From Candidatus Magasanikiibacteriota bacterium (GTDB lineage: Bacteria; Patescibacteriota; Patescibacteriia; Magasanikbacterales; GWA2-37-8), in the NCBI GenBank assembly GCA_016189025.1, contig JACPGS010000012.1:1-60248 (forward strand): a stretch of 60,248 nucleotides of DNA, given 5' to 3'. Numbering within the stretch: position 1 is the stretch's first letter; each line of letters opens with the position of its first letter. The notes under the pieces were generated by a model that saw nothing but the letters and a program-made list of their open reading frames with translations, did not search any database and was not told the origin of the DNA. The position numbers and the translations under genes are program-made. Below, in pieces: positions 3,615 to 51,870 of this stretch.

Positions 3615-3641
3615 TCAGTTGATTTTTGGCCGGTAATTTGT

Positions 3642-3700
3642 TATACTGTAGAAGAATCGGTAAATCTGTTAGCATCAGGGCGCGGCAGACGAGTGTCTTT
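3642..3700 (+). repeat. Truncated left half of the MITE-like repeat (copy B)
   Basis: tatactgtagaagaat..ttagcatcagggcgcggcagacgagtgtcttt matches the left arm of copies A and D, then breaks off. tatact is present on both sides. Confidence 0.65.
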
Positions 3701-3718
3701 AGTATACTAGATGAAATT

Positions 3719-4585
3719 ATGTCCAAAGTGCGTAAAGCCGTAATTCCGGTCGCCGGCTACGGCACGCGGTTTTTGCCGGCCACCAAGGCGCAGCCCAAAG
3801 AAATGCTGCCGGTGGTGGACAAGCCGATTGTGCAATATGTGGTGGAAGAAGTGGTAGCCTCCGGCATCACCGACATTATTCTGGTAACCGGCGCCAGCAA
3901 GCGCGCGGTGGAAGATCATTTTGATTATAATTACGAACTGCAGCAGTGGTTAAAAAAACAGGGCAAAGAAGATTTGCGCCAAGAAGTGAAGCATATTGCT
4001 GACCTTGCCAACTTTATCTACATCCGGCAAAAGGGCAACCCTGGCAACGGCACGCCGGCCTTATGCGCGCGCGAAGTAGTGGGCGACGAGCCGTTTGTTT
4101 ATATTTGGGGGGATGAATTTATTTACGCTCATCCACCCCGTACTAGGCAATGTCTGGCGGTATTTGAGAAGTACGGCGATCCGGTAATCTCCGGCATCCG
4201 CGTCGCCCGGAAAGACGTTTCCAAATACGGCATTGCCGAGGTGCAGCACATTGAAAAAAATATTTATCAAATTAAGTCTTTGGTGGAAAAGCCGACGCCG
4301 GCCGCGGCGCCTTCTACGCTCGCCACCCACGGCTGCTATATTCTGACCCCGGATATTTTTGATGATTTAGCGCGCCTGAAACCGGGCCGCGGCGGCGAAA
4401 TTTGGATCGTGGACGCCATTAAAAGTTTAATGAAGCGCCGGCCGGTGTACACCTGCGAGGTGGCTAACGCCACTTATTACGACACCGGCTCCAAACTGGG
4501 CTGGCTTAAGGCCAACGTGGATTTTGCCCTGCGCGATAAAGAACTGGGCAAAGATTTTAGGAAGTATTTAAAAAGCGTGATTTAG
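3719..4585 (+). CDS. galU: UTP--glucose-1-phosphate uridylyltransferase
   Basis: MSKVRKAVIPVAGYGTRFLPATKAQPKEMLPVVDKPIVQYVVEE is the canonical GalU N-terminus. The ORF-track start at 3626 reads through the repeat, so the ATG at 3719 is preferred. Confidence 0.9.
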   Translation: MSKVRKAVIPVAGYGTRFLPATKAQPKEMLPVVDKPIVQYVVEEVVASGITDIILVTGASKRAVEDHFDYNYELQQWLKKQGKEDLRQEVKHIADLANFIYIRQKGNPGNGTPALCAREVVGDEPFVYIWGDEFIYAHPPRTRQCLAVFEKYGDPVISGIRVARKDVSKYGIAEVQHIEKNIYQIKSLVEKPTPAAAPSTLATHGCYILTPDIFDDLARLKPGRGGEIWIVDAIKSLMKRRPVYTCEVANATYYDTGSKLGWLKANVDFALRDKELGKDFRKYLKSVI

Positions 4586-9487: not shown

Positions 9488-9547
9488 TAAATTTTCTTAA
9501 GTCATTTGATTACTAAAGGTCGGGGGAAAATTAACTCAACCTTACTT

Positions 9548-9958
9548 ATGTTAAAAATCAAACAATTTGTTTCCACCGCGCTTGCTGCCTTGATGGCGGT
9601 AGCGGCGACTTTCGCGCCGGTAGCGCTGCCGATTGCTTCGGCCCAGACTATCACTAACCAGGACCTGGGCATTCAATACGGCGCGGCCACCGGCCTCGGC
9701 AGCACTGATGTGCGGGTAACGGTAGCCCGCATTATCCGGGTAGCCATGGGGCTCCTGGGAATTATCGCGGTAGTAATTATCCTCATCGGCGGCTTTACCT
9801 GGATGACGGCTGGCGGCAACGAAGAAAAAGTGGCGGAAGCCAAGAAGTGGATTTTTGCCGGCATTATCGGGCTTGCCATTATCCTCTCTGCTTACGCCAT
9901 TGCCAGCTTTGTCATTAACCAGTTGGTAACGGCCACCACCACCGGCGGCACGATTTAA
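9548..9958 (+). CDS. VirB2/TrbC-like membrane protein, paralog 5 (no Cys module)
   Basis: MLKIKQFVSTALAALMAVAATFAPVALPIASA signal peptide. The core is nearly identical to paralog 4 (ILIGGFTWMTAGGNEEKVAEAKKWIFAGIIGLAIILSAYAIASFV). ATG 9548 is preferred over the TTG at 9506. Confidence 0.75.
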   Translation: MLKIKQFVSTALAALMAVAATFAPVALPIASAQTITNQDLGIQYGAATGLGSTDVRVTVARIIRVAMGLLGIIAVVIILIGGFTWMTAGGNEEKVAEAKKWIFAGIIGLAIILSAYAIASFVINQLVTATTTGGTI

Positions 9959-10046
9959 CGAAGAAGCAACCTCGCAAGAAAGCAGCCGAGCCTCGCGGCT
10001 CTCTGCTTTCTTGGCTTATTGCTTGTTCCTCGCCCCTTCATTGTTT

Positions 10047-10721
10047 ATGCTGTTTAGTCGCTTTCGCGCCTCGGCCGCCATCATCGGAATCGCCCTGGTT
10101 TTAATGCCGGCGTTGGCAACGGCGCAGGAAAAACCGGATGAGTACGGCTTGGAAACTGCCGTGGGGCAAACCGGCGGGCTGCTGCGGCCGACGGTAGCCG
10201 GGCAGAGCACCGTAGAAGGCGTAATCGGCGAAATTGTAAAGGCCTTGCTTGGGTTTACCGGCATTATTTTTTTTGGGTTGATGTTGTACGCCGGTTTTAC
10301 CTGGATGCGCGCTTTCGGCAACACCGAGTATGTGGAGCGGGCCAAGAGCATTTTGGAAGCGGCGGTGATTGGGCTTCTGCTGGTGCTGGCCGCTTATGCC
10401 ATAGCCACCTTTGTGTTTGAGAGCCTAACTAAAGGAGCGGGCAGTACGGCCGGCGGGGGAACTTCCACTGCTTTGGCCTGTACGGCGGGCAGAGTAGACG
10501 GAGCAGAATGCGGCGATAATAAGGTATGCGATTGCGGATTAGAGCAGGGAGCTGCCTGCACTAGCGCGGGAACCTGCGTAGATTTGTGCCAGTATAATTT
10601 TAGCGATAAAAACGGCGTTTGCACCGATGTTAGCGGTAGTGGCGGCGCTTGCCCGGGCAGCAAAATTAAAGAAACTGGATTGTGCCCGGGCAGCGCCAAT
10701 AATGTCTGCTGCCACGATTAG
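10047..10721 (+). CDS. VirB2/TrbC-like membrane protein, paralog 6, with C-terminal 12-Cys module
   Basis: MLFSRFRASAAIIGIALVLMPALATA signal peptide, core MLYAGFTWMRAFGNTEYVERAKSILEAAVIGLLLVLAAYAIATFV, then a Gly-rich linker and 12 Cys. Confidence 0.7.
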   Translation: MLFSRFRASAAIIGIALVLMPALATAQEKPDEYGLETAVGQTGGLLRPTVAGQSTVEGVIGEIVKALLGFTGIIFFGLMLYAGFTWMRAFGNTEYVERAKSILEAAVIGLLLVLAAYAIATFVFESLTKGAGSTAGGGTSTALACTAGRVDGAECGDNKVCDCGLEQGAACTSAGTCVDLCQYNFSDKNGVCTDVSGSGGACPGSKIKETGLCPGSANNVCCHD

Positions 10722-10734
10722 TTATTTTTTGAGT

Positions 10735-11499
10735 ATGGCGAAACGTATCTTTTATAGTTTTTTGCTGACTTTAATCGGCGGAGGATTTTTGTTTGCCCTA
10801 GCGAGCGGGGCAGCAGCCGGGCCATTTGGCGAAGCGCAAGAACGGCTCAGGAAGGCGGTTGGCAACACCGGTTTAAGTCCGCAAATTGAAACTCCGGTCG
10901 GGGCGGTGGTAAAAGGCGCGCTGTCGCTGGTGGGCACGGTATTTTTGCTGCTGACGGTTTACGCCGGCATTTTGTGGATGACGGCCGAGGGCCAGGAAGA
11001 GCGGGTGGAAAAAGCGCGCAAAATTATTACTGCGTCAGTCATCGGCCTGTTTATTACTCTGGGCGCCTACGCCATTACCTTTTTTGTCACTACGCGTCTG
11101 GGAGGGGCAGCGCCGGGGGGTGGGGGAACCACCCCAGCCGGCGTACCACCGGTATCAGGAACTCCGGGGTTCTCGGTTACCACCGAGGCTACTTGCTGGT
11201 CGCAAGGTGGTTGGTGTATGGACGATGCGTTAACCGGAGATAAGACCGGGGGGAAAGATTATGCCGTAAATGATTATGACAGCAGCAACCCCTGCGATCC
11301 CAACGGCACCGACCCGTTTGAAAATCATCAGTTGGGGACCTGTGAGAACGGCGTCAAGTGCTGCGAACTAAAGGCTTCAACGCAAAAGTGCACTCAATTA
11401 AACAATACCAGTTGCGGCGCCGCCAGTTGCGGCCCCACCCAATACCCGGTCGGCTTTAAGTGCGACAACGGCAATCCTTGTTGCGGTGCCAATCCTTGA
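10735..11499 (+). CDS. VirB2/TrbC-like membrane protein, paralog 7, with C-terminal 12-Cys module
   Basis: MAKRIFYSFLLTLIGGGFLFALASGAAA signal peptide, core TVYAGILWMTAEGQEERVEKARKIITASVIGLFITLGAYAITFFV, Gly/Pro linker, and 12 Cys (..KCCELK..PCCGANP). Confidence 0.7.
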   Translation: MAKRIFYSFLLTLIGGGFLFALASGAAAGPFGEAQERLRKAVGNTGLSPQIETPVGAVVKGALSLVGTVFLLLTVYAGILWMTAEGQEERVEKARKIITASVIGLFITLGAYAITFFVTTRLGGAAPGGGGTTPAGVPPVSGTPGFSVTTEATCWSQGGWCMDDALTGDKTGGKDYAVNDYDSSNPCDPNGTDPFENHQLGTCENGVKCCELKASTQKCTQLNNTSCGAASCGPTQYPVGFKCDNGNPCCGANP

Positions 11500-11507
11500 A
11501 CCTCCCT

Positions 11508-11993
11508 ATGAAAATTTTGGCTGGAGTAGTAGTAAGTATTTTCGTCATTTTGCTTTTTGCCGCTTCCAGTGTTTGGGCAGCGGTAGACATTGGCAGTAAT
11601 CTTACCCAAGAAGTAGCGCGCCAGGCGGGTTTTGAAACCAGTGGCGTTACCGAAACCACTTTTTCCGAACAAGTGGGGCGCGTGATAAAGGCGGCCCTGG
11701 GGCTCGCGGGCACGGTATTTTTGGCGCTTACCATCTACGCCGGCATTTTGTGGATGACCGCGAGCGGCAACGAAGAACAGGTGACCAAAGCCACCGGGAT
11801 TTTACGCCAGGCGATTATCGGCCTGATTATCGTGCTGTCGGCCTACGGTTTGGTAGTATTTGTGCTGGTGGCAGTGAGCAGCGCCGGCGGCGCCGGCACC
11901 GTGGGCGGCGCTGGGGCGAGTACGGGCCCGGCCGGATTCTGGAAGAGCTTTGGCGGGCATTTTAAGAATAATTGGTGGCGGTATTTGTTCTAA
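11508..11993 (+). CDS. VirB2/TrbC-like membrane protein, paralog 8, with Gly-rich aromatic C-tail
   Basis: MKILAGVVVSIFVILLFAASSVWA signal peptide, core TIYAGILWMTASGNEEQVTKATGILRQAIIGLIIVLSAYGLVVFV, and tail ..GFWKSFGGHFKNNWWRYLF. Confidence 0.7.
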   Translation: MKILAGVVVSIFVILLFAASSVWAAVDIGSNLTQEVARQAGFETSGVTETTFSEQVGRVIKAALGLAGTVFLALTIYAGILWMTASGNEEQVTKATGILRQAIIGLIIVLSAYGLVVFVLVAVSSAGGAGTVGGAGASTGPAGFWKSFGGHFKNNWWRYLF

Positions 11994-11994
11994 A

Positions 11995-12030
11995 GCAGAT
12001 TAAGAGATCAGCAGATTCAGCAGTCAGTCC
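11995..12030. repeat. Half-site of the cagcagattcag repeat family
   Basis: agcagattaagagatcagcagattcagcagtcagtcc. Only one arm is present. Confidence 0.5.
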
Positions 12031-12090
12031 TGTCATTCCCGCGAACGCGGGAATCTATCACCTGGATCCCCGCTTGCGCGGGGATGACAG
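12031..12090. repeat. REP-like palindromic units
   Basis: tgtcattcccgcgaacgcgggaatc and ctggatccccgcttgcgcggggatgacag. Confidence 0.75.
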
Positions 12091-12102
12091 TTTGCAACTC
12101 CT

Positions 12103-12531
12103 ATGCGCCCTACCATAATTATCCTCTCCGCTATCTTTGCCCTCGCCCTCTTAACTGCAGCAACGGCGCAGGCGCAATTGGCCTCCGAGGAAATCGGTAA
12201 ACAATTGGAGGCCGCGGCGGGCCCCAGCGGCGCCGCGCTCGGCGAGCCCATTGACCCGCGCGTTACCGTGGTGTTTATTATCCGCGTCCTGCTGTCGCTT
12301 ACCGCTACGGTACTCGTCGCCCTTAACCTTTACGCCGGATTTATGTGGATGACCGCGGCCGGCAACGAAGAGCGGGTAACTTCTGCTAAAACTATCATCC
12401 GCAATGCCACTATCGGCCTGATTATCGTGCTTTCGGCTTACTCCATTACCATTTTCGCCTTCAACCTGGCGCGCGGCACGCCGCCGGTTCCTCCGGGCGC
12501 CGAAATTGTCATCCCGCTCTTCGGCAAGTAG
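12103..12531 (+). CDS. VirB2/TrbC-like membrane protein, paralog 9
   Basis: Signal peptide ..LLTAATAQA and core LNLYAGFMWMTAAGNEERVTSAKTIIRNATIGLIIVLSAYSITIFA. Confidence 0.75.
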   Translation: MRPTIIILSAIFALALLTAATAQAQLASEEIGKQLEAAAGPSGAALGEPIDPRVTVVFIIRVLLSLTATVLVALNLYAGFMWMTAAGNEERVTSAKTIIRNATIGLIIVLSAYSITIFAFNLARGTPPVPPGAEIVIPLFGK

Positions 12532-12542
12532 CTCCCGCGCTT

Positions 12543-13256
12543 GTGGTATCCGTGATTATTCCGGCGTTTAACGAAGAGGAGCTGCTGCCGCAGTGTCTTA
12601 CTTCTCTCTCGGCGCAAAAGGGCGCTCCGCCTTTTGAAGTAATAATCGTCAATAATTTTTCCACCGACCGCACCCGCTTGGCGGCGGAGCAATTCCGCGG
12701 CCGCCTTAATTTGCGGGTAGTGGACGAGCCCCGGCGCGGGCGCGGTCAGGCGCGGGCGCGCGGATTTGCCGAAGCTCAAGGCGAAATTCTCCTCTCCACC
12801 GATGCCGACGCTATCCTGCCGGAGCACTGGGTAGCCGCTCTTACGCAGGCGCTGCAAAACCAAAACATTGCGGCCGTTACCGGCCCGGCGCGGGTCGCTG
12901 ATTGCGGCGCCCTCGGCAGCGCCCTGTTTAACGGGATTTTTTTGGCCACGGTGCGCGTGTACCGGCTGCTCTTCGGCCACGTTTGGCTCGGCGGCTATAA
13001 CTTCGGCATCCGGCGGCCGGCTTACCAGGCCGCCGGCGGCTTTAATGCGGCGCTCAACGCGATGGAAGACGTTGACTTGGGCTGGCGGGTGCATCGCTCT
13101 GGCGGGTCCATTCGCTATTTGCCCCGGGCCGGGGTAACTTTCTCCGGCCGGCGCTTCCGGACCGGCATTTCCCGGGGTCTATGGGATTACCTGCGATTAT
13201 TTTATCGTTATCGGCGGGGCGCCGCGGCGCCGGTAGTGCTGTCGGATGTGCGGTGA
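12543..13256 (+). CDS. Family 2 glycosyltransferase
   Basis: VSVIIPAFNEEELLPQCLTSL.., a DxD-like motif (STDADAILP), and ..YNFGIRR. GTG start. Confidence 0.8.
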   Translation: MVSVIIPAFNEEELLPQCLTSLSAQKGAPPFEVIIVNNFSTDRTRLAAEQFRGRLNLRVVDEPRRGRGQARARGFAEAQGEILLSTDADAILPEHWVAALTQALQNQNIAAVTGPARVADCGALGSALFNGIFLATVRVYRLLFGHVWLGGYNFGIRRPAYQAAGGFNAALNAMEDVDLGWRVHRSGGSIRYLPRAGVTFSGRRFRTGISRGLWDYLRLFYRYRRGAAAPVVLSDVR

Positions 13257-13276
13257 AGAAAACTGCGAGGTATTTT

Positions 13277-13449
13277 GAGACTATAGAAGAATGCCGACGA
13301 TACTATTATTCGTCAGGGCGCTGTCGCTCTTGCCCGGCCTGCCTGGTCGGGCGCGGCAGACACTCTACGTGCTCGCGAGGGCTCAAGCGCGTAGAGACTC
13401 GTCTGCCGCGCCCTGATTCTGACTGATTTTTTGATTCTTCTACAGTCTC
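13277..13449 (-). mobile_element. MITE-like repeat, copy C (divergent core, reverse orientation)
   Basis: TIRs gagactatagaagaat / attcttctacagtctc, inner arms gcgcggcagacactct..agagactcgtctgccgcgc, flanked by the direct repeat atttt on both sides. Confidence 0.7.
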
Positions 13450-13460
13450 ATTTTATTAGG

Positions 13461-13533
13461 GGTGTCCAGTCGGATTTGAACCGGCGCTCAGGGAGCCACA
13501 ATCCCTGGTGCTAACCACTACACTATGGACACC
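13461..13533 (-). tRNA. tRNA-His (anticodon GTG)
   Basis: G-1 plus acceptor GTGTCCA/TGGACAC, anticodon stem AGGGA/TCCCT with loop TTGTGGC, T arm GCCGG-TTCAAAT-CCGAC region. Confidence 0.85.
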
Positions 13534-13541
13534 ATCAAGCC

Positions 13542-13616
13542 TGGTGACCCCACTAGGAATTGAACCTAGATCTAGAGCTTAGAAGGCTCCCGTTCTATCC
13601 GTTGAACTATGGGGTC
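13542..13616 (-). tRNA. tRNA-Arg (anticodon TCT)
   Basis: Acceptor GACCCCA/TGGGGTC, D arm GTTC-AACGGATA-GAAC, anticodon loop CTTCTAA, T arm CTAGG-TTCAATT-CCTAG. CCA is encoded. Confidence 0.9.
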
Positions 13617-13725
13617 ATTCCCTGGGGGTCGATAAACTTCGCTTATCATACCGGATTTTGCGCACAAAAGCAAGGTGTGGTACCATATCAGTTAGTCAGC
13701 CATCCCATTCGGCAAGCTCAGGGCA

Positions 13726-13794
13726 GGCAGCAGATTCAGAAATCAGCAAGTGGTTGGCCGCTGAATCTGCCGAATCTGCTGATAACTGATTGCT
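13726..13794. repeat. Gene-less hairpin of the cagcagattcag family
   Basis: ggcagcagattcagaaatcagcaagtggttggccgctgaatctgccgaatctgctgataactgatt is nearly identical to the 8027-8115 copy. It lies directly upstream of paralog 10. Confidence 0.7.
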
Positions 13795-13809
13795 AAAAAA
13801 TTTTCTGCT

Positions 13810-14178
13810 ATGCGCACCATCAATATCATTGCCGTATGGCTAATGCTGGTAATCACTCCCCTGCTCTTAGTGGGGGTGTGGCGGGCCAGCGCCCAAAACT
13901 ACGGGTTAGATAAAACTGCCGGGCAGGCCGGCTATACCGCGGCCGAGCGCCAGATTGAGCCGCTGGTAGAGCGGGCGGTAAACGGATTTTTGGCGCTGCT
14001 CGCGATTTTGTTCCTGGGGCTGATGCTCTACGGCGGCCTGCGCTGGATGACGGCCCGCGGCAACGAGGAACTGTCCGGCCGGGCCAAACACGCCATTGAA
14101 GCGGCCATTATCGGCCTTACCATTGTGGTCGCTTCTTACGCCATCGCCACGTTGGTATTCCGGTTAGTGGGGGGTTGA
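13810..14178 (+). CDS. VirB2/TrbC-like membrane protein, paralog 10
   Basis: Signal peptide ..VGVWRASA and core LMLYGGLRWMTARGNEELSGRAKHAIEAAIIGLTIVVASYAIATLV. Confidence 0.75.
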   Translation: MRTINIIAVWLMLVITPLLLVGVWRASAQNYGLDKTAGQAGYTAAERQIEPLVERAVNGFLALLAILFLGLMLYGGLRWMTARGNEELSGRAKHAIEAAIIGLTIVVASYAIATLVFRLVGG

Positions 14179-14642: not shown

Positions 14643-15213
14643 TCGCGGGGCAACTGCCTTGCCTAAACCGCACCCTCTTAAGCACCCGGAACAGCGCGTC
14701 GGGGTGTTTATTGACGTGCAGAACATGTATTACAGCGCTAAGAATCTGTTTGGCGCCAAGGTTAATTTCGGCAATATTGTTAAAGAGGGTACGGCCGGCC
14801 GCAAGCTGATTCGCGCCATTGCCTATGTGGTGCGCACCGAAAGCAAAGAAGAGCAGCCGTTTTTTGATGCGCTGTATAATTTAGGCATTGAAACCCGCGA
14901 AAAACCCCTGCAGATATTTTTTGGCGGTGAAAAAAAGGCAGATTGGGATGTCGGCATGGCGGTTGACGTCCTTCGGCTGGCGCCGGCCCTGGATGCAGTT
15001 GTGCTAGTTTCCGGAGACGGTGATTTTGTTCCCCTTATTGAATATGTGCGTATTAATCAAGGTCGGCAGGCCGAGGTGATGGCATTCGGTGAAACCGCTT
15101 CCAGCAAGCTGATTGAAGCGGCCGATGATTTTACCGATTTAAGCCAGGCGCCCGATAAGTTTTTAATCGCCGGCCCCCGGCGCAGCTGGCGGGCGGCGTT
15201 GGGGAAGAAATGA
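14626..15213 (+). CDS. NYN-domain (LabA/DUF88-like) putative ribonuclease
   Basis: [45 protein letters not shown] matches the NYN/LabA acidic-residue pattern. It overlaps the rpsO 3' end by 17 nt. Confidence 0.75.
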
Positions 15214-15273
15214 GCAATTAACAATTAACAAAGAGCAATTAACTTGCTCCTTGTTCATTGCTAATTGTTAATT
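15213..15273. repeat. caattaacaat-type palindromic repeat
   Basis: gagcaattaacaattaacaaagagcaa / ttgctccttgttcattgctaattgttaatt is an imperfect hairpin starting at the NYN gene stop codon. Confidence 0.65.
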
Positions 15274-15363
15274 TTCATTTAATCACGGGTTCTGGCGCGC
15301 GGACCCCGAGACCTTTTCCGGTAAAGAGGTCTTACGCTCGCTCGCCAGCCCCGCCACTAAATT

Positions 15364-18085: not shown

Positions 18086-18114
18086 CCTCTCGCCCATCAA
18101 AGATCAATTATGTA

Positions 18115-18142
18115 TGGATTCCCGCTTACGCGGGAATGACAC
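18115..18142. repeat. REP-like palindromic unit in the rRNA leader
   Basis: tggattcccgcttacgcgggaatgacac. Confidence 0.7.
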
Positions 18143-19730
18143 AATTGTAGCCACGTCCCGCGGGACCTCTGGAAGTTAAAGCAGATAATAATTTGCCCTA
18201 TGTCTTCCAGCGGTTTACTCTTTTTCCCCGGCGGGTGATGGTTTTTTTATCAAGAGCGGCCGCCTGGGGAGCGGTCTTTTTTGTTTCTGAGTGTAAATTG
18301 TGAGCGGAGCGAAGAGTACGAAAGGGATTCTTCGCTGCGCTCAGAATGACAGTGACGATTGCGCCGGAAGGCACTTTGACAATTCAAAAGTAAAGGGTAG
18401 AAACCAAGCCCGGCATTGCTGCGACTAACCGTCGGAGCGGTACCGGGTAAAACCAGAAAGCACTTTTGAGTGTTTTCGTGGTGTGCAATTTCATATTAAG
18501 AGCATACGGTGGATGCCTTGACACCAAAAGACGATGAAGGACGTTGCAGGGTGCGATAAGCCTCGGGGAGCTCCCAAGCAAGCAGTGATCCGGGGATGTC
18601 CGAATGGGGAAACCCATCTGGAACCTTTACGGTTCCGGGTACGGTACAGTGAATCCATAGCTGTGCCGAGAAGACCTGGCGAAGTGAAACATCTCAGTAG
18701 CCAGAGGAAAATAAATCGCAGAGATTCCCTTAGTAGTGGCGAGCGAAACGGGAACAGCCTAAACCTTATCCGTGTGTCTGGAGTATCTGGTTGATCTCAC
18801 GATTAACTTTGGTCTCCAGGTGAAAGCCGCAGGGCGTTGCGGGTAAGGGGTAGTAAGACGTTTACGCTGACTTCCTGCGAAGTCGGGTGATTTAAGTTCT
18901 TTCCTAGCAGAAGGCTCTGGAACGAGCCGCCCAAGCGGGTAACAGCCCCGTACGCGAAAGGAGTGCAAAAATCATAGTAGATGTTCTTGAGTACGGCGGG
19001 ACTCGTGAAATCCCGTCTGAATCCGGGCCGACTATGGTCTAAGGCTAAATACTTTTGGTGATCGATAGTGGACAAGTACCACGAGGGAACGGTGAAAAGC
19101 AGCCCGGTGAGGGCGATGAAATAGTATCTGAAACCGTGTGCTTACCAGGAGCAGGAGACTTGGTCGTCAGAACTCTGGCCGCCGATAGCGGCCAGAGTTC
19201 TGACGACCGGTTAACTGTGTTCCTATTGAAGAATGAGCCTGCGAGTATGTGTGCGCTGCCAGCTTAAGGGCCTATGGCCCGGAGGCGCAGGGAAACCAAG
19301 TCTTAACGGGCGTCTGCCCAGCATCTTTTTGGTGCTGGGTTAAGTAGCGCATATATAACCCGAAACCGGGTGAGCTATCCAGGGCCAGGATGAACCCCTG
19401 CGAAAGCAGGGGGGAGGTCCGCACTCACGCGCCGTGCAACACGCGGAGATGAGCCGTGGATAGGAGAGAAATTCTAATCGAACTCGGTGATAGCTGGTTC
19501 TCCTCGAAATAGTTTTGGGACTAGCCTCGGGAATTTCTGCCGGCGGTAGAGCACTGGATGAGACTCGGGTCCTTCGGGATACCAGTTTCAATCAAACTCC
19601 GAATGCCGAACAGTTAACATCCCGGGAGTCAGAGTGTGGGGGCTAAGCTCCATGCTCAAAAGGGGAACAGCCCAGATCGCCAGCTAAGGTCCCTAAGTCC
19701 AGGTTAAGTGTAAAAGGTGGTGTTAGTTCT

Positions 19731-19768
<38 letters not shown>

Positions 19769-20609
19769 TAAAGAAAGCGTAACAGCTCACTGGTCAAGAG
19801 CTTTCGCGCCGAAAATGTACCGGGGCTCAAACCTGGCACCGAAGCTGCGAATGTCAGTGCTTCGCACCGAAAATTCAAAGGCAGGTTGCTGGTTGAATTT
19901 TTAGCGCGGAGCGCTGGCGTGGTAGAGGAGCGTTCGCTGCGCGGCGAAGCCCTAGGCGTAAGCCGGGGTGGAGCGCAGCGAAGTGAGAATGCAGGCATAA
20001 GTAACACAAAGGACGGTGAGAATCCGTCCCGCCGCAAGCCTAAGGTTTCCTGGGCAACGAGACTCGACCCAGGGTTAGTCGGTCCTAAGGCGAGGCCATT
20101 ATGGCGTAGCCGATGGAAGAGCCGGTTAATATTCCGGCACTGCCGACGGTTTGTTCAAGCGTGCGCATTAGCAAGCTCGGAGCGTGTTTTGAATACGCAT
20201 GTTCCGCAAGGAAAAGAGGAAGCCTTCGGGTGGAATCAATTCCGGGGGAGCTAGTGCCGAGAAAAGCGTTTGGGCGTTAAGCCGTCGGTAACCGTACCGC
20301 AAACCGACACCGGTAGGCGAGGCGAGTAGCCTCAGGCGTACGAGAGAACCCTCGTTTAGGAACTCGGCAATACAACGGCCGTAACTTCGGGATAAGGCCT
20401 GCCCCGACTTAGTCGGGGCTACAACAAAAGACGCACTGCGACTGTTTACCAAAAACACAGCTCCCTGCAAAAGCGCAAGCTGACGTATAGGGAGTGATGC
20501 CTGGCCAGTGTCAGAACGTTAAGGTGAGACGTCAATCCGTCGCAAGATGGAGGCAGCGTTGAGCTGAAGCGCTGATGAACGCCGGCGGTAACTATAACCG
20601 TCCTAAGGT

Positions 20610-20869
20610 CATCGGTTTCATATATTGGAGCCGATGAGGACTGGGACGATTGTAGAAGGTAAATTAAGTTATGCCAACAAAGACTGCCTTACTCTACAGC
20701 AATGTAGAGAGTGTCCAATCATAGCTATATGCTGGGAAGTTCTCTTGCCGAGGGAGCGATCAGCAGGGAACCCTGTACCGCGTTGGATGCAGGGGCGCCT
20801 CAGAGACTAAACGCTATGCTCCCGCCTAAGGCGGGATGAAGATATAGTCCAGACTAAAAGGAAGGTCTC
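20610..20869 (+). mobile_element. Group I intron 1 (ORF-less, about 260 nt), inserted after the E. coli U1931 equivalent
   Basis: Exon cctaaggt | intron | agcgaaattcc. The intron contains the R-like tcagagactaaacg and S-like gaagatatagtcc core elements. Junctions are good to a few nt and the 3' end does not show a terminal G. Confidence 0.7.
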
Positions 20870-20891
20870 AGCGAAATTCCTTGTCGGGTAA

Positions 20892-21602
20892 ACAAATCCT
20901 CAGGTCGGGGAAAATACTTGCCCGAGTATGGTGGCAACACGATACAAGCAAACTGACTCATAACGGTGGAGTCCTTAGTGGATAATACCGTGGGAAGTCC
21001 CGACTAAGTCGGGACCCCGTAACGACTGAGCCGAAAGGCGAGGTTAGACCATAGCAATATGGCTTACAATACGTCAGCTCTTGTCTTAAATGATGTATCC
21101 ATGAAGGAAGCGTCGTACGTAACTGGGCTGGTGGATGGAGAAGGGAGTTTTCTTATCTCTTTCCAGCAGCGAACCAAAATGAAAACTGGGATCGAAGTTA
21201 GGCCCAGTTTTACCCTCAGCCAGCACCAAAGAAATCTCGAGCTGCTCCAGTGGCTGCAAGCGTTCTTTGGTTGTGGTAGTCTCCGCTACAATCGCAGCGA
21301 TGAGACGTATAAGTATGAGGTTCGCAGTATTGATGATCTAACACGAGTGGTTATTCCTCACTTTGAGGCGTATCCACTGAAGTCATCAAAGCATAAAGAT
21401 TTTTTTGTTTTCAAGAAGGTCTGCGAAGCCATACAGCGGAGGGCACATTTAACTCGAGACGGCTTGGAACGTATTATCACTCAAGCGTACGGGATGAATA
21501 ATTTTGGTGCCAGACGATACGATAAGCAATCACTTCTACAGATACTGACAAGATGAAGGTATAGTCTGACCATCATGGTAACATGATGTTAACACAATTG
21601 GA
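20892..21602 (+). mobile_element. Group I intron 2 (about 711 nt) with LAGLIDADG ORF, near the E. coli 1951-1953 equivalent
   Basis: Exon ttgtcgggtaa | intron | gttccgacctgcacgaatgg. The S-like element is gatgaaggtatagtc. The junction is ambiguous by 1-2 nt. Confidence 0.75.
21059..21556 (+). CDS. LAGLIDADG homing endonuclease (single-motif, I-CreI-size)
   Basis: YVTGLVDGEGSFLISF motif, 165 aa. The C-terminus (..SLLQILTR*) runs into the intron core. Confidence 0.85.
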   Translation: MAYNTSALVLNDVSMKEASYVTGLVDGEGSFLISFQQRTKMKTGIEVRPSFTLSQHQRNLELLQWLQAFFGCGSLRYNRSDETYKYEVRSIDDLTRVVIPHFEAYPLKSSKHKDFFVFKKVCEAIQRRAHLTRDGLERIITQAYGMNNFGARRYDKQSLLQILTR

Positions 21603-22087
21603 GTTCCGACCTGCACGAATGGCATAACGATAGTGCGACTGTCTCAACGAGGGACTCGGTGAAATTGCAAGGGAGGTGAAGATGCCTCCTTCCCGCAACT
21701 AGACGAAAAGACCCCGTGAAGCTTTACTACAACTTGCTATTGGTATACGCGTTGGTATGTTGAGCGTAGGTGGGAGCCCGGCCGCAAGGCCGGGCGCCAA
21801 TGAGACACCACCCTTACCGGCGTGTATGCCTAATTTGGGCCCGTGAATCCGGGTTCGGAGACAGTGGCTGGTGGGTAGTTTATCTGGGGCGGATGCCTCC
21901 TAAATTGTAACGGAGGCGTTTACAAAGGTCGGCTTAGCGCGGATGGAAATCGCGCTGGACGGACAAACCCACAAGCCGGCTTTACTGCAAGGGCAGCAAC
22001 CCGCGCAGTCGCGAAAGCGGAAGTTAGTGAACCGACCATCCTATATAGGAAGGTGGAAGATCAACGGATAAAAGCTACTCCGGGGAT

Positions 22088-22952
22088 AGGCCCTAGATTA
22101 GGGCTGTTGTCCCGTCCCGGTAGTAATATCGGGACATGTAAACGGCTAATAACGGTGAAGCCCTCACCCTAACTAAAGCGTTAGGGCGGGTAATACCGTG
22201 GGAAGTTCTTCACTGCGTTCAGTTTACAAATTTATGACGGAACGCGAACAAAATATTGTCGTTGGTTGTATATTAGGTGATGGTTTTATCCAGGCAACCG
22301 GCAAACGCAATGCGCGTTTGCGGCTGGAGCACTCCCAGCGCCAGAAAGATTATCTTTACTGGAAGTGGGCGGAGCTAAAGCACTTAATGCAAGATCGTCC
22401 CAAACTGCTGCAGCGATTTAACCCGGTTTGGAAAAAGACCTACACCTATTGCCGCTGCCAATCTCATAGTTCCCCTCAATTCGGGAAACTGCGCGCCTTG
22501 TTTTATCACGAACAGCGCAAGCGCATCCCCGAGGGAATTAGCAAATGGCTGGCCAAGCCACTGACACTGGCAGTATGGTTTATGGATGATGGATACTATT
22601 TCGCCCGCGATAAAACGGCGTATCTGTATCTGTCGCCTTTGGCCACTCCGGACATCAAACGACTAGAGCAAACGCTCCATCAGGCGTATGGTTTAACACC
22701 GAAACTGGAGCGTAAAAAAACCGGCGCCCTGAACTTTAAGTTCTCGGCCGCCGCCACTAAGCGGCTAATTGCCATTATCGCTCCGCACGTTATCACTAGC
22801 ATGCGGTATAAAATAGGTGAAGAACCCCGTATCGACTGAGTCCATTGGACAAGGTGGCACGCCGGTAGGCGCGCCACAATACGCCGTACTCCTGGCTAGC
22901 GAGCCAGGATGAAGATATAGTCAGTACTCTTAGTAATAAGAGAGAAAATATG
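22088..22952 (+). mobile_element. Group I intron 3 (865 nt) with LAGLIDADG ORF, after the E. coli U2449 equivalent
   Basis: Exon ctccggggat | intron ends ..aaatatg | aacaggctgat. The 5' exon ends in U and the intron ends in G. The S element is gatgaagatatagtc. Confidence 0.8.
22198..22839 (+). CDS. LAGLIDADG homing endonuclease (double-motif type)
   Basis: Two motifs, [11 protein letters not shown] and [12 protein letters not shown]. 213 aa from the GTG start, and the start may instead be the ATG at 22234. Confidence 0.8.
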
Positions 22953-22991
22953 AACAGGCTGATCGGGCCCGATAGTCCACATAGACGGCCC

Positions 22992-23032
<41 letters not shown>

Positions 23033-23063
23033 AAGAAGCTCCCAAGGGTTTGGCTGTTCGCCA

Positions 23064-23107
<44 letters not shown>

Positions 23108-23872
23108 AGATACGTGCTGTCTTTAAATCTAGCTATATGCTGGAAATTCTGGTAAAGTCTCAAAGGAGTGAGACTTGAGTATCTCACACTACTCGTGGTA
23201 TAGTAATTGTACTATGAGTAAAAATGTCGTGAGTGCAGACCACCAGCAGGAAAGAGTAAGAGCAAAACTCAATCCCTGGTACATAGTAGGTTTTGTAGAA
23301 GGCGAGGGAACATTTCACATAGCTTTCTACAAAGATATTCGCATGAAGCAGATAATCAAAGTAATACCGGAATTTCATGTGAACCAAAGTTATTTGAGGA
23401 AAAATACTCTCGAATTGATACAAGAGTATTTTGGCTGCGGTTACCTTAAAGCCAACCATGCCGCTAACCCCAAAGATACTACATATGTGCTCGTGGTGCG
23501 AGATCGCGAGGAATTACTCACGAAAATAATTCCTTTCTTTCGAACTTATCGCCTTCAATCGGTAAAACGCGATAGCTTTATCATCTTTGCTGAGATAGTA
23601 GAGATGATGGCTAAGGGTTTACACCGAACTCAAGAAGGTATTCGTAAAATTATTCAGCTGGCTTACCAGATGAATGTTGGCGGTAAATATAGGCAGCGGA
23701 AAAAAGAGGTTTTATTAAAGCTCTTGCAATCCTCAGAGACTATACGCTAGACCCATGAACCACGTAGGGTTTAGGGAAGATATAGTCCGAACTGCATGGC
23801 GACATGCAGAGCGTATTAGAAATAATACGCCGCCTCGTCCGTCATTTGGCGGATGAGGGGGTAACATATTTG
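23108..23872 (+). mobile_element. Group I intron 4 (765 nt) with LAGLIDADG ORF, after the E. coli U2604 equivalent
   Basis: Exon cgtgagacagt | intron ends ..catatttg | tcggtctcctatctg. The U...G rule is obeyed. R is tcagagactatacg and S is ggaagatatagtcc. Confidence 0.8.
23175..23750 (+). CDS. LAGLIDADG homing endonuclease (single-motif)
   Basis: YIVGFVEGEGTFHIAF motif. The C-terminus ..LLQSSETIR* overlaps the intron R element. The start may be the ATG at 23214. Confidence 0.85.
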   Translation: MSISHYSWYSNCTMSKNVVSADHQQERVRAKLNPWYIVGFVEGEGTFHIAFYKDIRMKQIIKVIPEFHVNQSYLRKNTLELIQEYFGCGYLKANHAANPKDTTYVLVVRDREELLTKIIPFFRTYRLQSVKRDSFIIFAEIVEMMAKGLHRTQEGIRKIIQLAYQMNVGGKYRQRKKEVLLKLLQSSETIR

Positions 23873-24203
23873 TCGGTCTCCTATCTGTTGCGGGCGCGGA
23901 ACATTGCGCAGACTCTTCCCTAGTACGAGAGGACCGGGAAGGATAAACCTCTGGTGTGCCAGTTGTCCCATCCGGGGCATTGCTGGGTAGCTACGTTTAG
24001 CGCGGATAAACGCTGAAAGCATCTAAGCGTGAAGCCGTCTGCCAGATTAATGTTCGTTACAGACCCCTTAAAGACTATAAGGTTGATAGGCGCTAGGTGT
24101 AAGCTCCGTAAGGAGCTGAGCCAAGGCGTACTAATCGGTCAAGCACACCACGGAGACACTTAACAGTGCTTTGGTTGGTCCTACCCTTTATTTGAGTACA
24201 GCC

Positions 24204-24319
24204 TTCTCGGTGTCCGGAGCGGCAGGGTTACACCCGTTCCCATCCCGAACACGGCAGTTAAGCCTGCCAGCGCTGATGATACCCCGTTTATTCGGGGGAA
24301 AGTAGGCCGATGCCGAGAA
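24204..24319 (+). rRNA. rrf: 5S rRNA
   Basis: ..ggttacacccgttcccatcccgaacacggcagttaagcc..gaaagtaggc.. matches the conserved 5S loop C/helix III and loop E regions. The terminal helix is tctcggtg/tgccgaga. Confidence 0.85.
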
Positions 24320-38334: not shown

Positions 38335-39290
38335 ATACTAACAAACTGAAGGCAGCCGTGCTGGGCGGCGGGAACGGCAGCGCCATCGTGCTCTCCGGAT
38401 TAAAAAAGTACGCTGACCGGCTGGCGCTCTCGGCGGTAATTTCCATGAGCGATTCGGGCGGCTCCACCGGCCGGCTGCGCCAGGAGTTTAACACTCTCCC
38501 ACCGAGCGATATCATGCGCGCCGTAGTGGCGATGTCGCGCTATGATTTTACGGCGCTGCGCCAGATTTTCTACCGCAATCGCTTCTCGGGGCCAGGCAAA
38601 TTAGACGGCCACAACCTGGGCAATCTATTTGTTGCTTTGGTGGCGCAGTACGCCGGCGATTTTATGGCGGCGATTCGGGCGTTGGAGATTAGTTTGGAAT
38701 CGGTGGGACGGGCGTATCCGGTAACGCTCCAGGTAAATGATTTGGCGGTGGAGCTGGCCAACGGAGCAGTGGTAAAAACCGACGAAGTAATTGACCGGCC
38801 GAATTATGACCGGAGTTTACGCATCAAACGGATGTGGCTCCAGCCGGCGGCGGCGGCCAATCCGGAAGCAGTGCGCGCAATTAAAGCAGCTGATTATATT
38901 ATTTTAAGCCCGGGCAGTCTTTATACCAGCATCATTGCTACATTGTTGCCGACTGGCATTAAGGAAGCGATTGCGGCTTCACGCGGCAAGCTGTGGTATG
39001 TGGCTGGCAATGCTTTTCAGTTAAACGGTGAAACCGGGCCGGCCAAACTCTCGGAAGCCGTAGCCGAGCTGGAGCAGTATTTACCCCGCCCGGTGGATAT
39101 AGTATTGTATAACAACGTCAAGCTCAATTCCGCACAGCAACAGCGCTATGCCGACAAGCAGTGGGGGTTGCTTACTTTAGATGCCGCGGCGCTGGGGAAT
39201 CGCCCGGTAATTGGCAAAGATTTTGAAAAGCCGGCTGGGGGGTTGAGCAGCGATAAGCTGGGTAAGATTTTGTTGGCGATGATGAGGTAA
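38331..39290 (+). CDS. YvcK/CofD-family (UPF0052) gluconeogenesis-factor-like protein
   Basis: AAVLGGGNGSAIVLSGLKKY..MSDSGGSTGRLR..ILSPGSLYTSI. Confidence 0.8.
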   Translation: MNTNKLKAAVLGGGNGSAIVLSGLKKYADRLALSAVISMSDSGGSTGRLRQEFNTLPPSDIMRAVVAMSRYDFTALRQIFYRNRFSGPGKLDGHNLGNLFVALVAQYAGDFMAAIRALEISLESVGRAYPVTLQVNDLAVELANGAVVKTDEVIDRPNYDRSLRIKRMWLQPAAAANPEAVRAIKAADYIILSPGSLYTSIIATLLPTGIKEAIAASRGKLWYVAGNAFQLNGETGPAKLSEAVAELEQYLPRPVDIVLYNNVKLNSAQQQRYADKQWGLLTLDAAALGNRPVIGKDFEKPAGGLSSDKLGKILLAMMR

Positions 39291-39293
39291 TAT

Positions 39294-39482
39294 GAGACTG
39301 TAGAAGAATTGAAAATACCAGTTAGCATCAGGGCGCGGCAGACGAGTGTCTTTGGGCGCGCACCCCGACTTAGTCGGGGGAGCACCCAAAGAGTGTCTGC
39401 CGCGACCAACCAGGCTAATTTTAGCAATAGCGATAGCGACCAGTTTAAAAACGCGACATAGTTTGCATTCTTCTACAGTCTC
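39294..39482 (+). mobile_element. MITE-like repeat, copy D (189 bp, best-preserved)
   Basis: Perfect 16-bp TIRs gagactgtagaagaat / attcttctacagtctc with the 5-bp direct repeat aatat on both flanks. The inner hairpin carries the apical ccccgacttagtcgggg. It exactly fills the gap between the yvcK-like stop and the GNAT start. Confidence 0.8.
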
Positions 39483-39485
39483 AAT

Positions 39486-39848
39486 ATGGAAATTAAAAAA
39501 GAAATCAAACGCGAGGGGTACGCGGTGAAAATTACGCTGGCAGAAAACGGCGCGGTGCTCGGCTGGACTTATCTCTATGTGATGTTCCAGGGCCGGCATC
39601 GCGAACCATACGGATATCTGGAAAATGTGTACGTCGAGCCGGAACATCGCGGCCGCGGCCTAGGGAATAAATTGGTAGAATTGGCGATTGCCGAAGCGCG
39701 GGAGCGGAGTTGTTACAAGCTTATCGGTACCAGTAAAATGGAGAAAACCGAAGTGCATGAGTTTTACGCCAAACACGGATTTGCCAAAATGGGATACGAA
39801 TTCCGGCTGGATTTAATCAAAGATTCAGCGGTGATCACTAAAGATTAA
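39486..39848 (+). CDS. GNAT-family N-acetyltransferase
   Basis: VYVEPEHRGRGLGNKLVELAIAEARE matches the acetyl-CoA-binding motif A. Confidence 0.8.
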   Translation: MEIKKEIKREGYAVKITLAENGAVLGWTYLYVMFQGRHREPYGYLENVYVEPEHRGRGLGNKLVELAIAEARERSCYKLIGTSKMEKTEVHEFYAKHGFAKMGYEFRLDLIKDSAVITKD

Positions 39849-43740: not shown

Positions 43741-43826
43741 TGTCATTCCCGCGAACGCGGGAATCCAGCGCCTGGATCCCCGCTGGAGTTTACCCTCGTG
43801 GATTCCCGCTTACGCGGGAATGACAC
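43741..43826. repeat. REP-like palindromic units (three)
   Basis: tgtcattcccgcgaacgcgggaatccag, ctggatccccgctgg.., tggattcccgcttacgcgggaatgacac. The last unit encodes the final residues (RVIPA) and the stop codon of tmk. Confidence 0.75.
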
Positions 43827-44541
43827 GGGGGCGAGGATGACTCGCCAGCAGGCGAGAGAGTAAGCGGGTAGCTTCTTGTTGTAGTATATCAATTTTTACG
43901 TCGGCCGCCAAGTCGTGTATTACAGTGCCGCAATCGGTGAAGAGGGCGCGGAATTGGGAAGAAGCAAAACGCGCCGCCGCCGCAGTCTGGAAAGCCAAGT
44001 TTTCAAAGATCACATTATCGCGTTTGGTAGTGCGTTTCCCCAGGCGAGAGAGCGCAACGGCGGGTTCAGAGTTAAGTAGCACCAAATGATCGGGGGGGTG
44101 CTGCAGCGCCAGAGTATTGCCCGGGAGCGCGGTTAAAAATTTTTCAGTTAACTGACCGCTTAGCGCCTGGTAGCAGAGCGAAGTGGAAACGCCGCGATCT
44201 TGCAGCACGGTTTTGCCGTCCTGCAGCGCCGGCAGAATTACTGTGGTGTAAAGAATCAAACGATCCAGCGAGTAGGCTTCGGCAATGGCGCGTTCGGGAT
44301 ACCCCGTGCCCTGCCGGATTAGTTCGTCGCGAATCACGCGGCCGACGCCCGCGTGAGTAGGCTCGCCGGAGATAATAAAATTATAGGGCCGGAGTTCGGC
44401 GGCGCCGGGGTGGCGGTGGTGAATTTTCCAGTAAGCGCGCAGGTCAAATACGGCGTTGTCGGCGGCCAGCAAATAATCGGCCCAGGCCTGGAGCACCGTG
44501 CTTTTGCCGCTGCCGTCAATGCCGTCCACGATGGCGAACAT
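43810..44541 (-). CDS. tmk: Thymidylate kinase-like P-loop kinase
   Basis: MFAIVDGIDGSGKSTVLQAWADYL matches the dTMP kinase P-loop context. ATG 44541 is preferred over TTG 44553. Confidence 0.75.
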   Translation of the reverse strand: MFAIVDGIDGSGKSTVLQAWADYLLAADNAVFDLRAYWKIHHRHPGAAELRPYNFIISGEPTHAGVGRVIRDELIRQGTGYPERAIAEAYSLDRLILYTTVILPALQDGKTVLQDRGVSTSLCYQALSGQLTEKFLTALPGNTLALQHPPDHLVLLNSEPAVALSRLGKRTTKRDNVIFENLAFQTAAAARFASSQFRALFTDCGTVIHDLAADVKIDILQQEATRLLSRLLASHPRPRVIPA

Positions 44542-44620
44542 AGCAATTAACAATTAGCAATTAACAATTAGCAATTAGCAAGTTACCCAATACTTGTTCA
44601 TTGCTCTTTGTTAATTGTTC
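44542..44620. repeat. caattaacaat-type palindromic repeat
   Basis: agcaattaacaattagcaattaacaattagcaattagcaag / cttgttcattgctctttgttaattgtt. The right arm encodes the last codons (..RTINKEQ) and the stop of folA. Confidence 0.65.
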
Positions 44621-45089
44621 TTTTTTCATATTTCACAAACGCAAATCCCTGGTGGTCTTCGCGCCAGGTTTCTTGCCAGACCGTTCGGTCAATCGGCGGA
44701 AAGAAGGCGTCGCCGGCGTCAACCGTTTGGTGGACGCGGGTAATTTCCAGCACCTCGGCGAGCGGCAGCATTTCTTCGTAAATTTTCTGCCCGCCAAAGC
44801 CGATAATGGCTTCGTGGGGGTGCGCCGCTATCGCCTCATTAATAGTAATATACACCTCCACCCCTGGCGGGAATTGGGCGCGCGGGGCGCGGGTGATAAC
44901 CACATTGGTGCGGCCGGGCAGCGGCCGGCGAGACTCGGGGATAGACTCCCAGGTGCGGCGCCCCATTATCAGCACTTTGCCGAGCGTCAGCGCCTGCATC
45001 CGGCGCCAATCCTCGGGGATACGCCAGGGGATGCCCCCATTTTTGCCAATGCAGTTATTTTGCGCCACCGCGGCGACGAGGGTGATCAT
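44598..45089 (-). CDS. folA: Dihydrofolate reductase
   Basis: MITLVAAVAQNNCIGKNGGIPWRIPEDWRRMQALTLGKVLIMGRRTWESIP. The internal ATG is preferred, because the longer ORF to 45326 reads through the MITE. Confidence 0.9.
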   Translation of the reverse strand: MITLVAAVAQNNCIGKNGGIPWRIPEDWRRMQALTLGKVLIMGRRTWESIPESRRPLPGRTNVVITRAPRAQFPPGVEVYITINEAIAAHPHEAIIGFGGQKIYEEMLPLAEVLEITRVHQTVDAGDAFFPPIDRTVWQETWREDHQGFAFVKYEKRTINKEQ

Positions 45090-45109
45090 AGCAAATGGCA
45101 GTTCTATAT

Positions 45110-45299
45110 TAGATTGTTGAAGAATACCTACTGTATCGTTATTCGCCTGGTCGCTATCGCTACTGCTAAATTTAGCCTGGTTGGTCGCGGCAGACACTCT
45201 TTGGGTGCTCCCCCGATTTAATCGGGGTGCGCGCCCAAAGACACTCGTCTGCCGCGCCTTAATGCTAACTGGTTTTTCCTCCCATTCTTTTACAATCTC
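45110..45299 (-). mobile_element. MITE-like repeat, copy E (190 bp, reverse orientation)
   Basis: TIRs tagattgttgaagaat / attcttttacaatctc. Inner arms gtcgcggcagacactctttggg..cccaaagacactcgtctgccgcgc with the apical ccccgatttaatcgggg. It fills the thyA-folA spacer. Confidence 0.75.
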
Positions 45300-45303
45300 A
45301 TTT

Positions 45304-46176
45304 TTATACAGCAATCTCAAATTCAATCCGGGGGTAGCTTCCGTAGCCCACTATCTTACTGTGCTCGGCCTGCCAGCTGAAGATAGAAGTAAACGGCTCG
45401 GTTACCAGGCGGGGCAGGGGGTATTTAGCGGGGTCGCGGGATAATTGCTCGCGGGCGCCGTCCCGGTGGTTGACAAAAATATGCACATCGGCCAAAAAGC
45501 CGACCAGCTTGCCTTCCTGCAGTCCGGCCTCTTTGGCCAAGAGATGTAAGAGTAAGGCATAGCTCGCGATGTTAAAGGGTAGCCCGAGCATGGTGTCCAC
45601 CGAGCGCTGGTTCCAGAGCAAGTTCAGCCGGCCGTCAATTACCGTTACCTGGTAAGAGTAATGGCAGGGGGGCAGCGCCATTTCCCCCAGTTGCAGGGGA
45701 TTCCAGGCCGACACAATCATCCGGCGGTCGCGGGGATTAGTTTTGAGAGTTTCCACCAGGCGGCGCAGTTGGTCCACGCCCTGTCCGGCGTAGTCGGTAT
45801 CATAATTTTGGTACGGGGCATTAAAATGGCGCCACTGGAAGCCGTAGACTGGCCCCAAATCGCGCTCCTCTTGCATCCGCTGTCTTGCCGCCGCGTCGTG
45901 CCCGTAGGGAGCTTTACGCGGCGAGGCCCACTCGTCCCAAATATGATTATGGCGCTCCTGCAGCCAGCGCTTGTCGGTGAGTCCTTTAATAAAAAATTCC
46001 AGCTCGCTCGCAATCAGCCGGAAAGGCATTTTTTTGGTGGTGAGCAGGGGGAAGCCTTGCGCCAGGTCGTGCTCAAACATGGCGCCGGCGACGGTTAACG
46101 CGTCAGTCCCCTGGCGGGTGGGTACTTTAATACCGTTATCCAGCACGCGGCGGACGATATCTAAATAACTCTGCAT
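45304..46176 (-). CDS. thyA: Thymidylate synthase (ThyA type)
   Basis: MQSYLDIVRRVL.., ..RRMIVSAWNP.., ALPPCHYSYQ... The ATG at 46176 avoids overlap with the upstream ORF. Confidence 0.95.
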   Translation of the reverse strand: MQSYLDIVRRVLDNGIKVPTRQGTDALTVAGAMFEHDLAQGFPLLTTKKMPFRLIASELEFFIKGLTDKRWLQERHNHIWDEWASPRKAPYGHDAAARQRMQEERDLGPVYGFQWRHFNAPYQNYDTDYAGQGVDQLRRLVETLKTNPRDRRMIVSAWNPLQLGEMALPPCHYSYQVTVIDGRLNLLWNQRSVDTMLGLPFNIASYALLLHLLAKEAGLQEGKLVGFLADVHIFVNHRDGAREQLSRDPAKYPLPRLVTEPFTSIFSWQAEHSKIVGYGSYPRIEFEIAV

Positions 46177-51789: not shown

Positions 51790-51870
51790 TGTCATTCCCG
51801 CGGAAGCGGGAATCCAGTGTCTAGACTAATGTAGCGATTGTCTAGATTCCCGTTTGCACGGGAATGACAG
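51790..51870. repeat. REP-like palindromic units
   Basis: tgtcattcccgcggaagcgggaatccag .. ctagattcccgtttgcacgggaatgacag. Confidence 0.75.

Follow-up and report, generated by a model that had tools for sequence, protein, structure and literature searches.

The repeat lying between a yvcK/CofD gene and a GNAT gene in this contig (60,248 bp, analysed whole and referred to here as the window) is a non-autonomous DNA transposon (MITE), a reading to which we assign a probability of about 0.85. It is a lineage-specific subfamily of a group that is defined by its terminal inverted repeats (TIRs) and is found in several Patescibacteria, and it has been active recently. The element is small and non-coding, is bounded by TIRs, is flanked at copies C and D by target-site duplications (TSDs), is dispersed in multiple copies and is present or absent at one site. 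The first-pass annotation had described a MITE-like repeat under constraint at the RNA level. The transposition part of that description is strengthened by an empty site recovered from a closely related strain (contig L141) and by elements with the same TIR, and with TSDs of their own, in other Patescibacteria metagenome-assembled genomes (MAGs); the idea of a special RNA element is not supported.

With an nhmmer profile of the four full copies (173–190 bp), we matched five places in the window and none elsewhere, and these are exactly the four full copies and one half copy that had been annotated (copies A to E, Table 1). The same five copies are interlinked by an unbiased repeat search of the window (families D9/D10, I1-I3, I5 and I7). 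The TIR is 16 bp long, GAGACTGTAGAAGAAT, with 0–3 mismatches at the element ends. When up to three mismatches are allowed this sequence occurs nine times in the window, against 0.10 expected by chance, and eight of the nine occurrences are element ends. Direct repeats, read directly from the sequence, agree with those noted before: copies D (AATAT) and C (ATTTT) have perfect 5-bp TSDs and copy A has only AGTT (4 bp) on either side. Copy E has no TSD.

Table 1. Coordinates of the repeat copies, their neighbours and other features of the window. Profile matches are those of nhmmer, with E-values.
Feature	Positions	Strand	Profile match (E-value)	Remarks
Copy A, full, 189 bp	1645-1833	+	1645-1831, + (1.2e-58)	TIRs degenerate; 4-bp AGTT common to the flanks
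Copy A neighbours	1022-1627; 1860-3614			Pilin-like gene; 584-aa ORF
Copy B, left half	3642-3700	+	3644-3700, + (2.4e-13)	Left TIR, spacer and 5' arm of the hairpin only
Copy B neighbours	3719 (right, ATG)			Left, 584-aa ORF; right, NTP_transferase (GalU-like) gene, real start at this ATG
Copy C, divergent subfamily, 173 bp	13277-13449	-	13278-13449, - (3.2e-48)	About 70% identical to D; TIR mismatches 1 and 0
Copy C TSD	13272-13276; 13450-13454			ATTTT, perfect
Copy C neighbours	12543-13256 (+); 13459-13532 (-)			GT2 glycosyltransferase gene; tRNA-His
Copy D, full, 189 bp	39294-39482	+	39294-39481, + (1.4e-60)	Between yvcK/CofD stop and GNAT ATG
Copy D TIRs	39294-39309; 39467-39482			Both perfect
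Copy D boundaries	39288-39290; 39486			yvcK/CofD stop TAA; GNAT ATG
Copy D TSD	39289-39293; 39483-39487			AATAT, left and right
Copy D inner GC-rich hairpin	39334-39404	+		CGCGGCAGAC ... GTCTGCCGCG
Copy E, full, 190 bp	45110-45299	-	45111-45299, - (2.9e-58)	TIRs degenerate (3 and 2 mismatches); no TSD
Copy E neighbours	45304-45306; 45089	-		thyA stop; DHFR ATG
Second repeat family, TGTCATTCCCGCGAACGCGGGAATCCAG	8746-8807; 12031-12092; 18111-18157; 43741-43841; 51790-51870			
Two palindromic families, CAGCAGATTCAGAAATCAGCA...GCTGAATCTGC and AGCAATTAACAATTAACAA...TTGTTAATTG	4579-4619; 8027-8123; 11994-12020; 13715-13802; also 15208-15285; 44545-44629			
LAGLIDADG endonuclease ORFs	21059-21556; 22198-22839; 23175-23750			

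Identity to copy D is 85% for copy E, 83% for copy A and 70% for copy C. The last is a distinct variant, in which the TIRs, the lower stem (CGCGGCAGAC/GTCTGCCGCG) and the internal loop of 5 by 2 nt are retained, whereas the upper stem and apex (tctacg/cgtaga) differ and the 3' segment has diverged. The lower stem and the asymmetric loop (GAGTG opposite GT in copy D, where the apex is variable) are conserved across both variants, A/D/E and C. The earlier statement that every copy has two TIRs, a long inner hairpin and an asymmetric 3' segment was too broad. Paired TIRs are present in the full copies, copy B having the left one only; the hairpin is common to all as regards its lower stem, of which B retains the 5' arm, with C departing from the others above it; and the 3' segment is diverged in C. 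Copy B begins with TATACT in place of the GAGACT of the TIR, and a second TATACT stands 2 nt past its break point (3642-3647 and 3703-3708), a repetition that suggests microhomology-mediated truncation.

All copies are intergenic according to Pfam and tRNA calls. No reading frame stays open through all copies, each meeting a stop codon in one or more of them, and the concatenated six-frame translation of the element found no match in the protein database. Two open reading frame calls that run into the repeat (3626..4585 and 44598..45326) had been suspected of carrying false N-terminal extensions, and their Pfam matches indeed start at the internal ATG codons given in Table 1, of the NTP_transferase and DHFR genes respectively. 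The closest homologues of the YvcK protein, with no more than 60% identity to it, carry the names Candidatus Magasanikbacteria or Patescibacteria.

Short-read contigs of the same organism were recovered from several runs by exact-protein look-ups in Logan. In contig L141, from run SRR12113422, yvcK leads straight into the start codon of the GNAT gene, with no element and with AATAT once, the junction reading ...GATTTTGTTGGCGATGATGAGTAAATATGGAAATT... (in its shorter form ...GATGAGTAAATATGGAAATT...). From the exact position of copy D between the yvcK TAA and the GNAT ATG it had been deduced that removal of the copy together with one AATAT would give a seamless junction; this junction is the one seen in L141, which makes copy D a true insertion, polymorphic between strains, that duplicated a 5-bp target. 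The contig is 100% identical to the window over 1275 bp downstream and 94% identical over 86 bp upstream. Aligned with 39209-39294 of the window, its positions 1-86, which precede the insertion point, show 5 differences in 86 positions, compared with 0 in 1275 downstream; the insertion point therefore coincides with a strain or recombination boundary.

Seven other samples have filled junctions at copy D, with yvcK-bearing contigs stopping about 33–36 nt into the copy in four samples and GNAT-bearing contigs starting within its right part in five. Copy E is filled in four Logan samples (thyA contigs, all of them filled), contigs bearing the 584-aa ORF are all filled as well, and one further Logan contig (L144) ends inside copy C; several exact-protein look-ups for more empty sites had no match on record. 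Short-read contigs break within every copy (A to E) in several samples, as expected of a dispersed repeat. In the nearest reference MAG (L021) the gene order glmS-yvcK-GNAT is kept and yvcK and the GNAT gene overlap by 14 nt, so that there is no ancestral spacer at this place.

The exact 16-mer GAGACTGTAGAAGAAT occurs at no fewer than 113 loci in a collection of genome contigs. Inverted pairs of it, 127–229 bp apart and in most cases flanked by direct repeats, are present in at least six other MAGs. Five of the six are labelled Patescibacteria (Magasanikbacteria PFPK01, Saccharibacteria CAYHZE01, Uhrbacteria MGER01, Parcubacteria VMFQ01 and Sungiibacteriota JACPYI01), and the sixth is JAUYLV01. 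The TSDs of these sister elements are 5 bp long in seven (TTACT, AATAT, ATTAT, ACACT, ATATT, AAGGT and ATCAT) and 6 bp long in two (AAGAAT and AAACTT), and the sister at locus L180 is inserted at TAATAT right after a stop codon, as is copy D. The sisters are like the element of the window in that their TIR is identical or nearly so, their TSDs are AT-rich and they are intergenic. In their interiors they differ from it: alignment scores equal those of shuffled sequence, nhmmer gives no match, and many sisters have GTCATTGCGAG...CTCGCAATGAC modules in place of the CGCGGCAGAC hairpin. The TIR is the only part conserved among them, being the part that a transposase would recognise, and the combination of a shared TIR with unrelated interiors makes the element a lineage-specific subfamily within a broader group of MITEs.

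CAYHZE01 also contains one same-TIR MITE nested in another (L259, 4548-4865; TSDs AAGGT and ATCAT) and two MITEs that flank a single GNAT gene (L180, 1528-1658 and 2312-2443). Many single matches to GAGACTGTAGAAGAAT, comprising several in Patescibacteria-labelled MAGs and all of those in cyanobacteria, are probably due to chance and were set aside, as they fall within what looks like coding sequence and lack a partner repeat; in the coding matches the 16-mer translates as E-T-V-E-E. Searches with other parts of the element returned little. The exact 20-mer of the hairpin core, GGCGCGGCAGACGAGTNTCT, gave only chance matches of 20–27 nt in genome and metagenome contigs. Gapped patterns in genome contigs gave no match for the TIR pair and one chance match for the stem pair, viral contigs contained the TIR 16-mer only as single matches or in tandem coding repeats, and a distant blastn search of plasmids with the element yielded no match.

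We propose that a transposase acting in trans would recognise the 16-bp TIRs, and that the element would have inserted into short AT-rich targets of which 5 bp were duplicated, a step documented by the comparison of empty and filled sites. In a genome of about 55% GC such AT-rich targets lie mostly at gene boundaries, hence the insertions exactly between stop and start codons. The TIR would then be the conserved functional part and the hairpin-rich interior a subfamily-specific filler, and the subfamily proper to the genome of the window would comprise two variants, A/D/E and C. Copy D is probably recent, judging from its perfect TIRs, its perfect TSD and its polymorphism between strains, while copies A and E would be older and decayed and copy B a truncated remnant. 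Where copies lie within operons, as do D (yvcK-GNAT) and E (thyA-folA), they probably share the operon transcript and would fold as RNA hairpins, possibly with neutral effect. Pfam scans of 30 larger ORFs of the window revealed no transposase and no autonomous element with these TIRs, and the loci fetched contained no IS-sized TIR pair enclosing a transposase ORF, among the matches listed. Two candidates of such a size (L259, 4627-7323 and L180, 1528-2443) were rejected, being composed of ordinary genes or a second MITE and containing no transposase. The core of the TIR, TGT.GAA.AA, presumably resembles ends of the IS903/IS5 type, although a 5-bp TSD does not, as we understand it, fit IS903.

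The duplicated targets also bear on whether the repeat could be a REP/REPIN-like or IS200/IS605-derived palindrome that a tyrosine (HUH) transposase mobilises in single-stranded form. The element does form a long, imperfectly matched palindrome, the window also contains REPIN-like doublets of hairpins from a different family, and the TIR contains GTAG, which tags one REP superfamily (PMC3733652). REP/REPIN sequences mobilised by RAYT thus resemble the element in their palindromic intergenic form and in the GTAG inside the terminal repeat, whereas REPINs have no TIR-plus-TSD architecture and the element has both TSDs and an empty site. To our knowledge REP/REPIN and IS200/IS605 elements are without target-site duplication and without terminal inverted repeats. 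Given the 5-bp TSDs at C, D and most sisters, a target present once in the empty site, and orientations that do not follow the replication direction deduced from GC skew, we consider such an origin very improbable; the scanned ORFs of the window contained no RAYT-like or Y1 transposase domain.

TIRs, TSDs and a single-target empty site likewise point to transposition rather than to integron attC-like sites between gene cassettes, which they already contradict. Such sites would explain the shared orientation of copies and genes, and the copies are imperfect palindromes with asymmetric bulges that stand exactly between genes and are co-oriented with them. Yet the copies are flanked not by cassettes but by housekeeping genes whose synteny is conserved (glmS-yvcK-GNAT and thyA-folA), the copies are conserved in sequence, unlike attC, their ends show no GTTRRRY / RYYYAAC core sites, and no integrase is found among the scanned ORFs, so that we give this explanation almost no credence.

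Orientation was one ground on which the repeat had been taken for an RNA element, all five copies having been described as co-oriented with local transcription. Copies A, B, D and E do have the orientation of both neighbouring genes, with the five copies split 3 + / 2 - between the strands, but copy C lies between a GT2 gene on the + strand and a tRNA-His gene on the - strand and its orientation relative to transcription is ambiguous. These data could be read as those of a MITE co-opted for a cis-acting RNA function that depends on orientation, such as processing or stabilisation in operons, with selection keeping the stems and purging antisense insertions; copy C does share the orientation of the adjacent tRNA genes. 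Replication direction was considered as a cause of the orientations and dismissed: GC skew is positive throughout the window, so the 3:2 split goes with the direction of the genes rather than with that of replication, which speaks slightly for co-option. On the other hand, there are only four informative copies and 'sense' was defined after the fact, so that the chance of all four agreeing is 0.125 (0.0625 if C is counted with the tRNAs), and under a neutral model one shared orientation among them is a 6–12% coincidence.

The sister elements, scored against Pfam-confirmed genes, go both ways. In JAUYLV01, L182 and L232 are co-oriented, whereas the opposite orientation is taken by L241 relative to both flanks and by L220 relative to one flank; in CAYHZE01, L179 and L180 share one orientation, from which L193 departs at one flank. 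The transposition mechanism thus imposes no orientation relative to genes, and any bias in the subfamily of the window would need selection, which five copies cannot show. We therefore do not retain sense orientation as a sign of an RNA element; the orientation shared with genes would most simply be chance in a sample of four.

We also examined the fold of the element. Compared with shuffled sequences, the hairpin is far stabler (z about −8 to −10). Pairing is kept in 97.8% of cells, with double-sided changes at five pairs, a number reached by 1 of 500 shuffles; this pairing, together with the internal loop and lower stem common to both variants, would fit selection on an RNA. The earlier argument that the apical hairpin varies between copies and yet stays paired holds as far as pairing is concerned. 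It does not extend to selection on RNA structure, as both strands fold equally well and some of the compensations lie in the TIRs. Copy D has a predicted fold of −89.3 kcal/mol in the sense strand against −90.7 kcal/mol in the reverse complement, other copies behave alike, and the consensus gives −61.75 and −61.74 kcal/mol for the two strands. Pairs possible only as G-U occur on both strands and favour neither: those of the sense strand fall in the TIR helix and one stem column, and in the antisense consensus a helix of ten pairs is added, four of its columns being G-U.

Three of the five compensatory pairs come from variant C alone, and two lie within the TIRs, where a cause at the DNA level is to be expected, since matched ends would serve recognition by a transposase. 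Hairpins and palindromes can moreover be corrected by template switching without selection (quasipalindrome mutation). The comparison with Rfam suggested in the first-pass annotation gave no match on any copy at the gathering threshold and only noise of 10–19 bits at E ≤10, and simple scans revealed no promoter-like or terminator-like site in copies D or E. Since nothing found separates constraint on RNA from constraint on DNA, and since sisters with the same TIR insert both ways, we regard co-option as a cis-acting RNA as unlikely.

Among known systems the element is closest in organisation to the Correia elements of Neisseria and the ERIC elements of Enterobacteria/Yersinia, which are likewise small (about 100–200 bp), non-coding and intergenic, have TIRs and long hairpins, are often co-transcribed and are present or absent between strains. 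It shares no sequence similarity with them by any tool, and its host is an uncultivated Patescibacteria lineage. Correia elements duplicate TA, as opposed to the 5-bp AT-rich TSD of the element described here. Correia and ERIC MITEs can act on transcripts via RNase III or RNase E (PMC10969869), which is a further point for co-option, and by analogy with these known MITEs an effect of our element at the RNA level is possible.

It is also conceivable, if doubtful, that the subfamily of the window could persist only in sense orientation within operons, either because its transcript would work as a structured RNA, for instance in processing or stability, or because a compact hairpin keeps the upstream stop and the downstream start adjacent in a genome largely without Shine-Dalgarno sequences. 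Motifs resembling Shine-Dalgarno sequences are rare in the window, preceding the start codon in about 6 of 38 genes, and many start codons follow a run that is first A-rich and then T-rich, for example AAATT. We considered that a Shine-Dalgarno site of the GNAT gene might be split off from its start codon by copy D, and dropped this idea given the rarity of such motifs upstream of genes here.

Our literature search returned no description of this TIR, or of MITEs in Patescibacteria (CPR). The genomes of these bacteria are very small, and MITE activity is caught here in one of them, at a site in a tight operon junction that is occupied in most samples and unoccupied in one. The occurrence of an identical 16-bp TIR across several Patescibacteria-labelled lineages points to a shared transposase family or to exchange between lineages. 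In practical terms the repeat interrupts assembly from short reads and gives rise to gene calls with false N-terminal extensions.

Further repeats and introns were observed in the window. A second intergenic repeat family (Table 1) consists of hairpin units TGTCATTCCCGCGAACGCGGGAATCCAG, mostly arranged as inverted doublets (REPIN-like) and without the MITE TIR; the start of these units, GTCATT..., resembles the GTCATTGCGAG modules within the sister MITEs of other Patescibacteria. Two more intergenic families are palindromic, one of the form CAGCAGATTCAGAAATCAGCA...GCTGAATCTGC and the other, AT-rich, of the form AGCAATTAACAATTAACAA...TTGTTAATTG; they lie just past gene ends and may be terminators. 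From about 6979 to 14178 there is a tandem array of small paralogous genes that share a W-M-T-A-x-G-N-E-E motif, and the one array gene scanned with Pfam (13810-14178) matched T4SS_pilin. The 23S rRNA region (18489-24318) contains a group I intron at 20609-20871 (Rfam, 58.7 bits). Two of the three LAGLIDADG ORFs fall in the 2-kb gap between the end of the Rfam 23S match (22143) and the 5S gene (24206), so that more introns or a split 3' end of the 23S rRNA seem likely.
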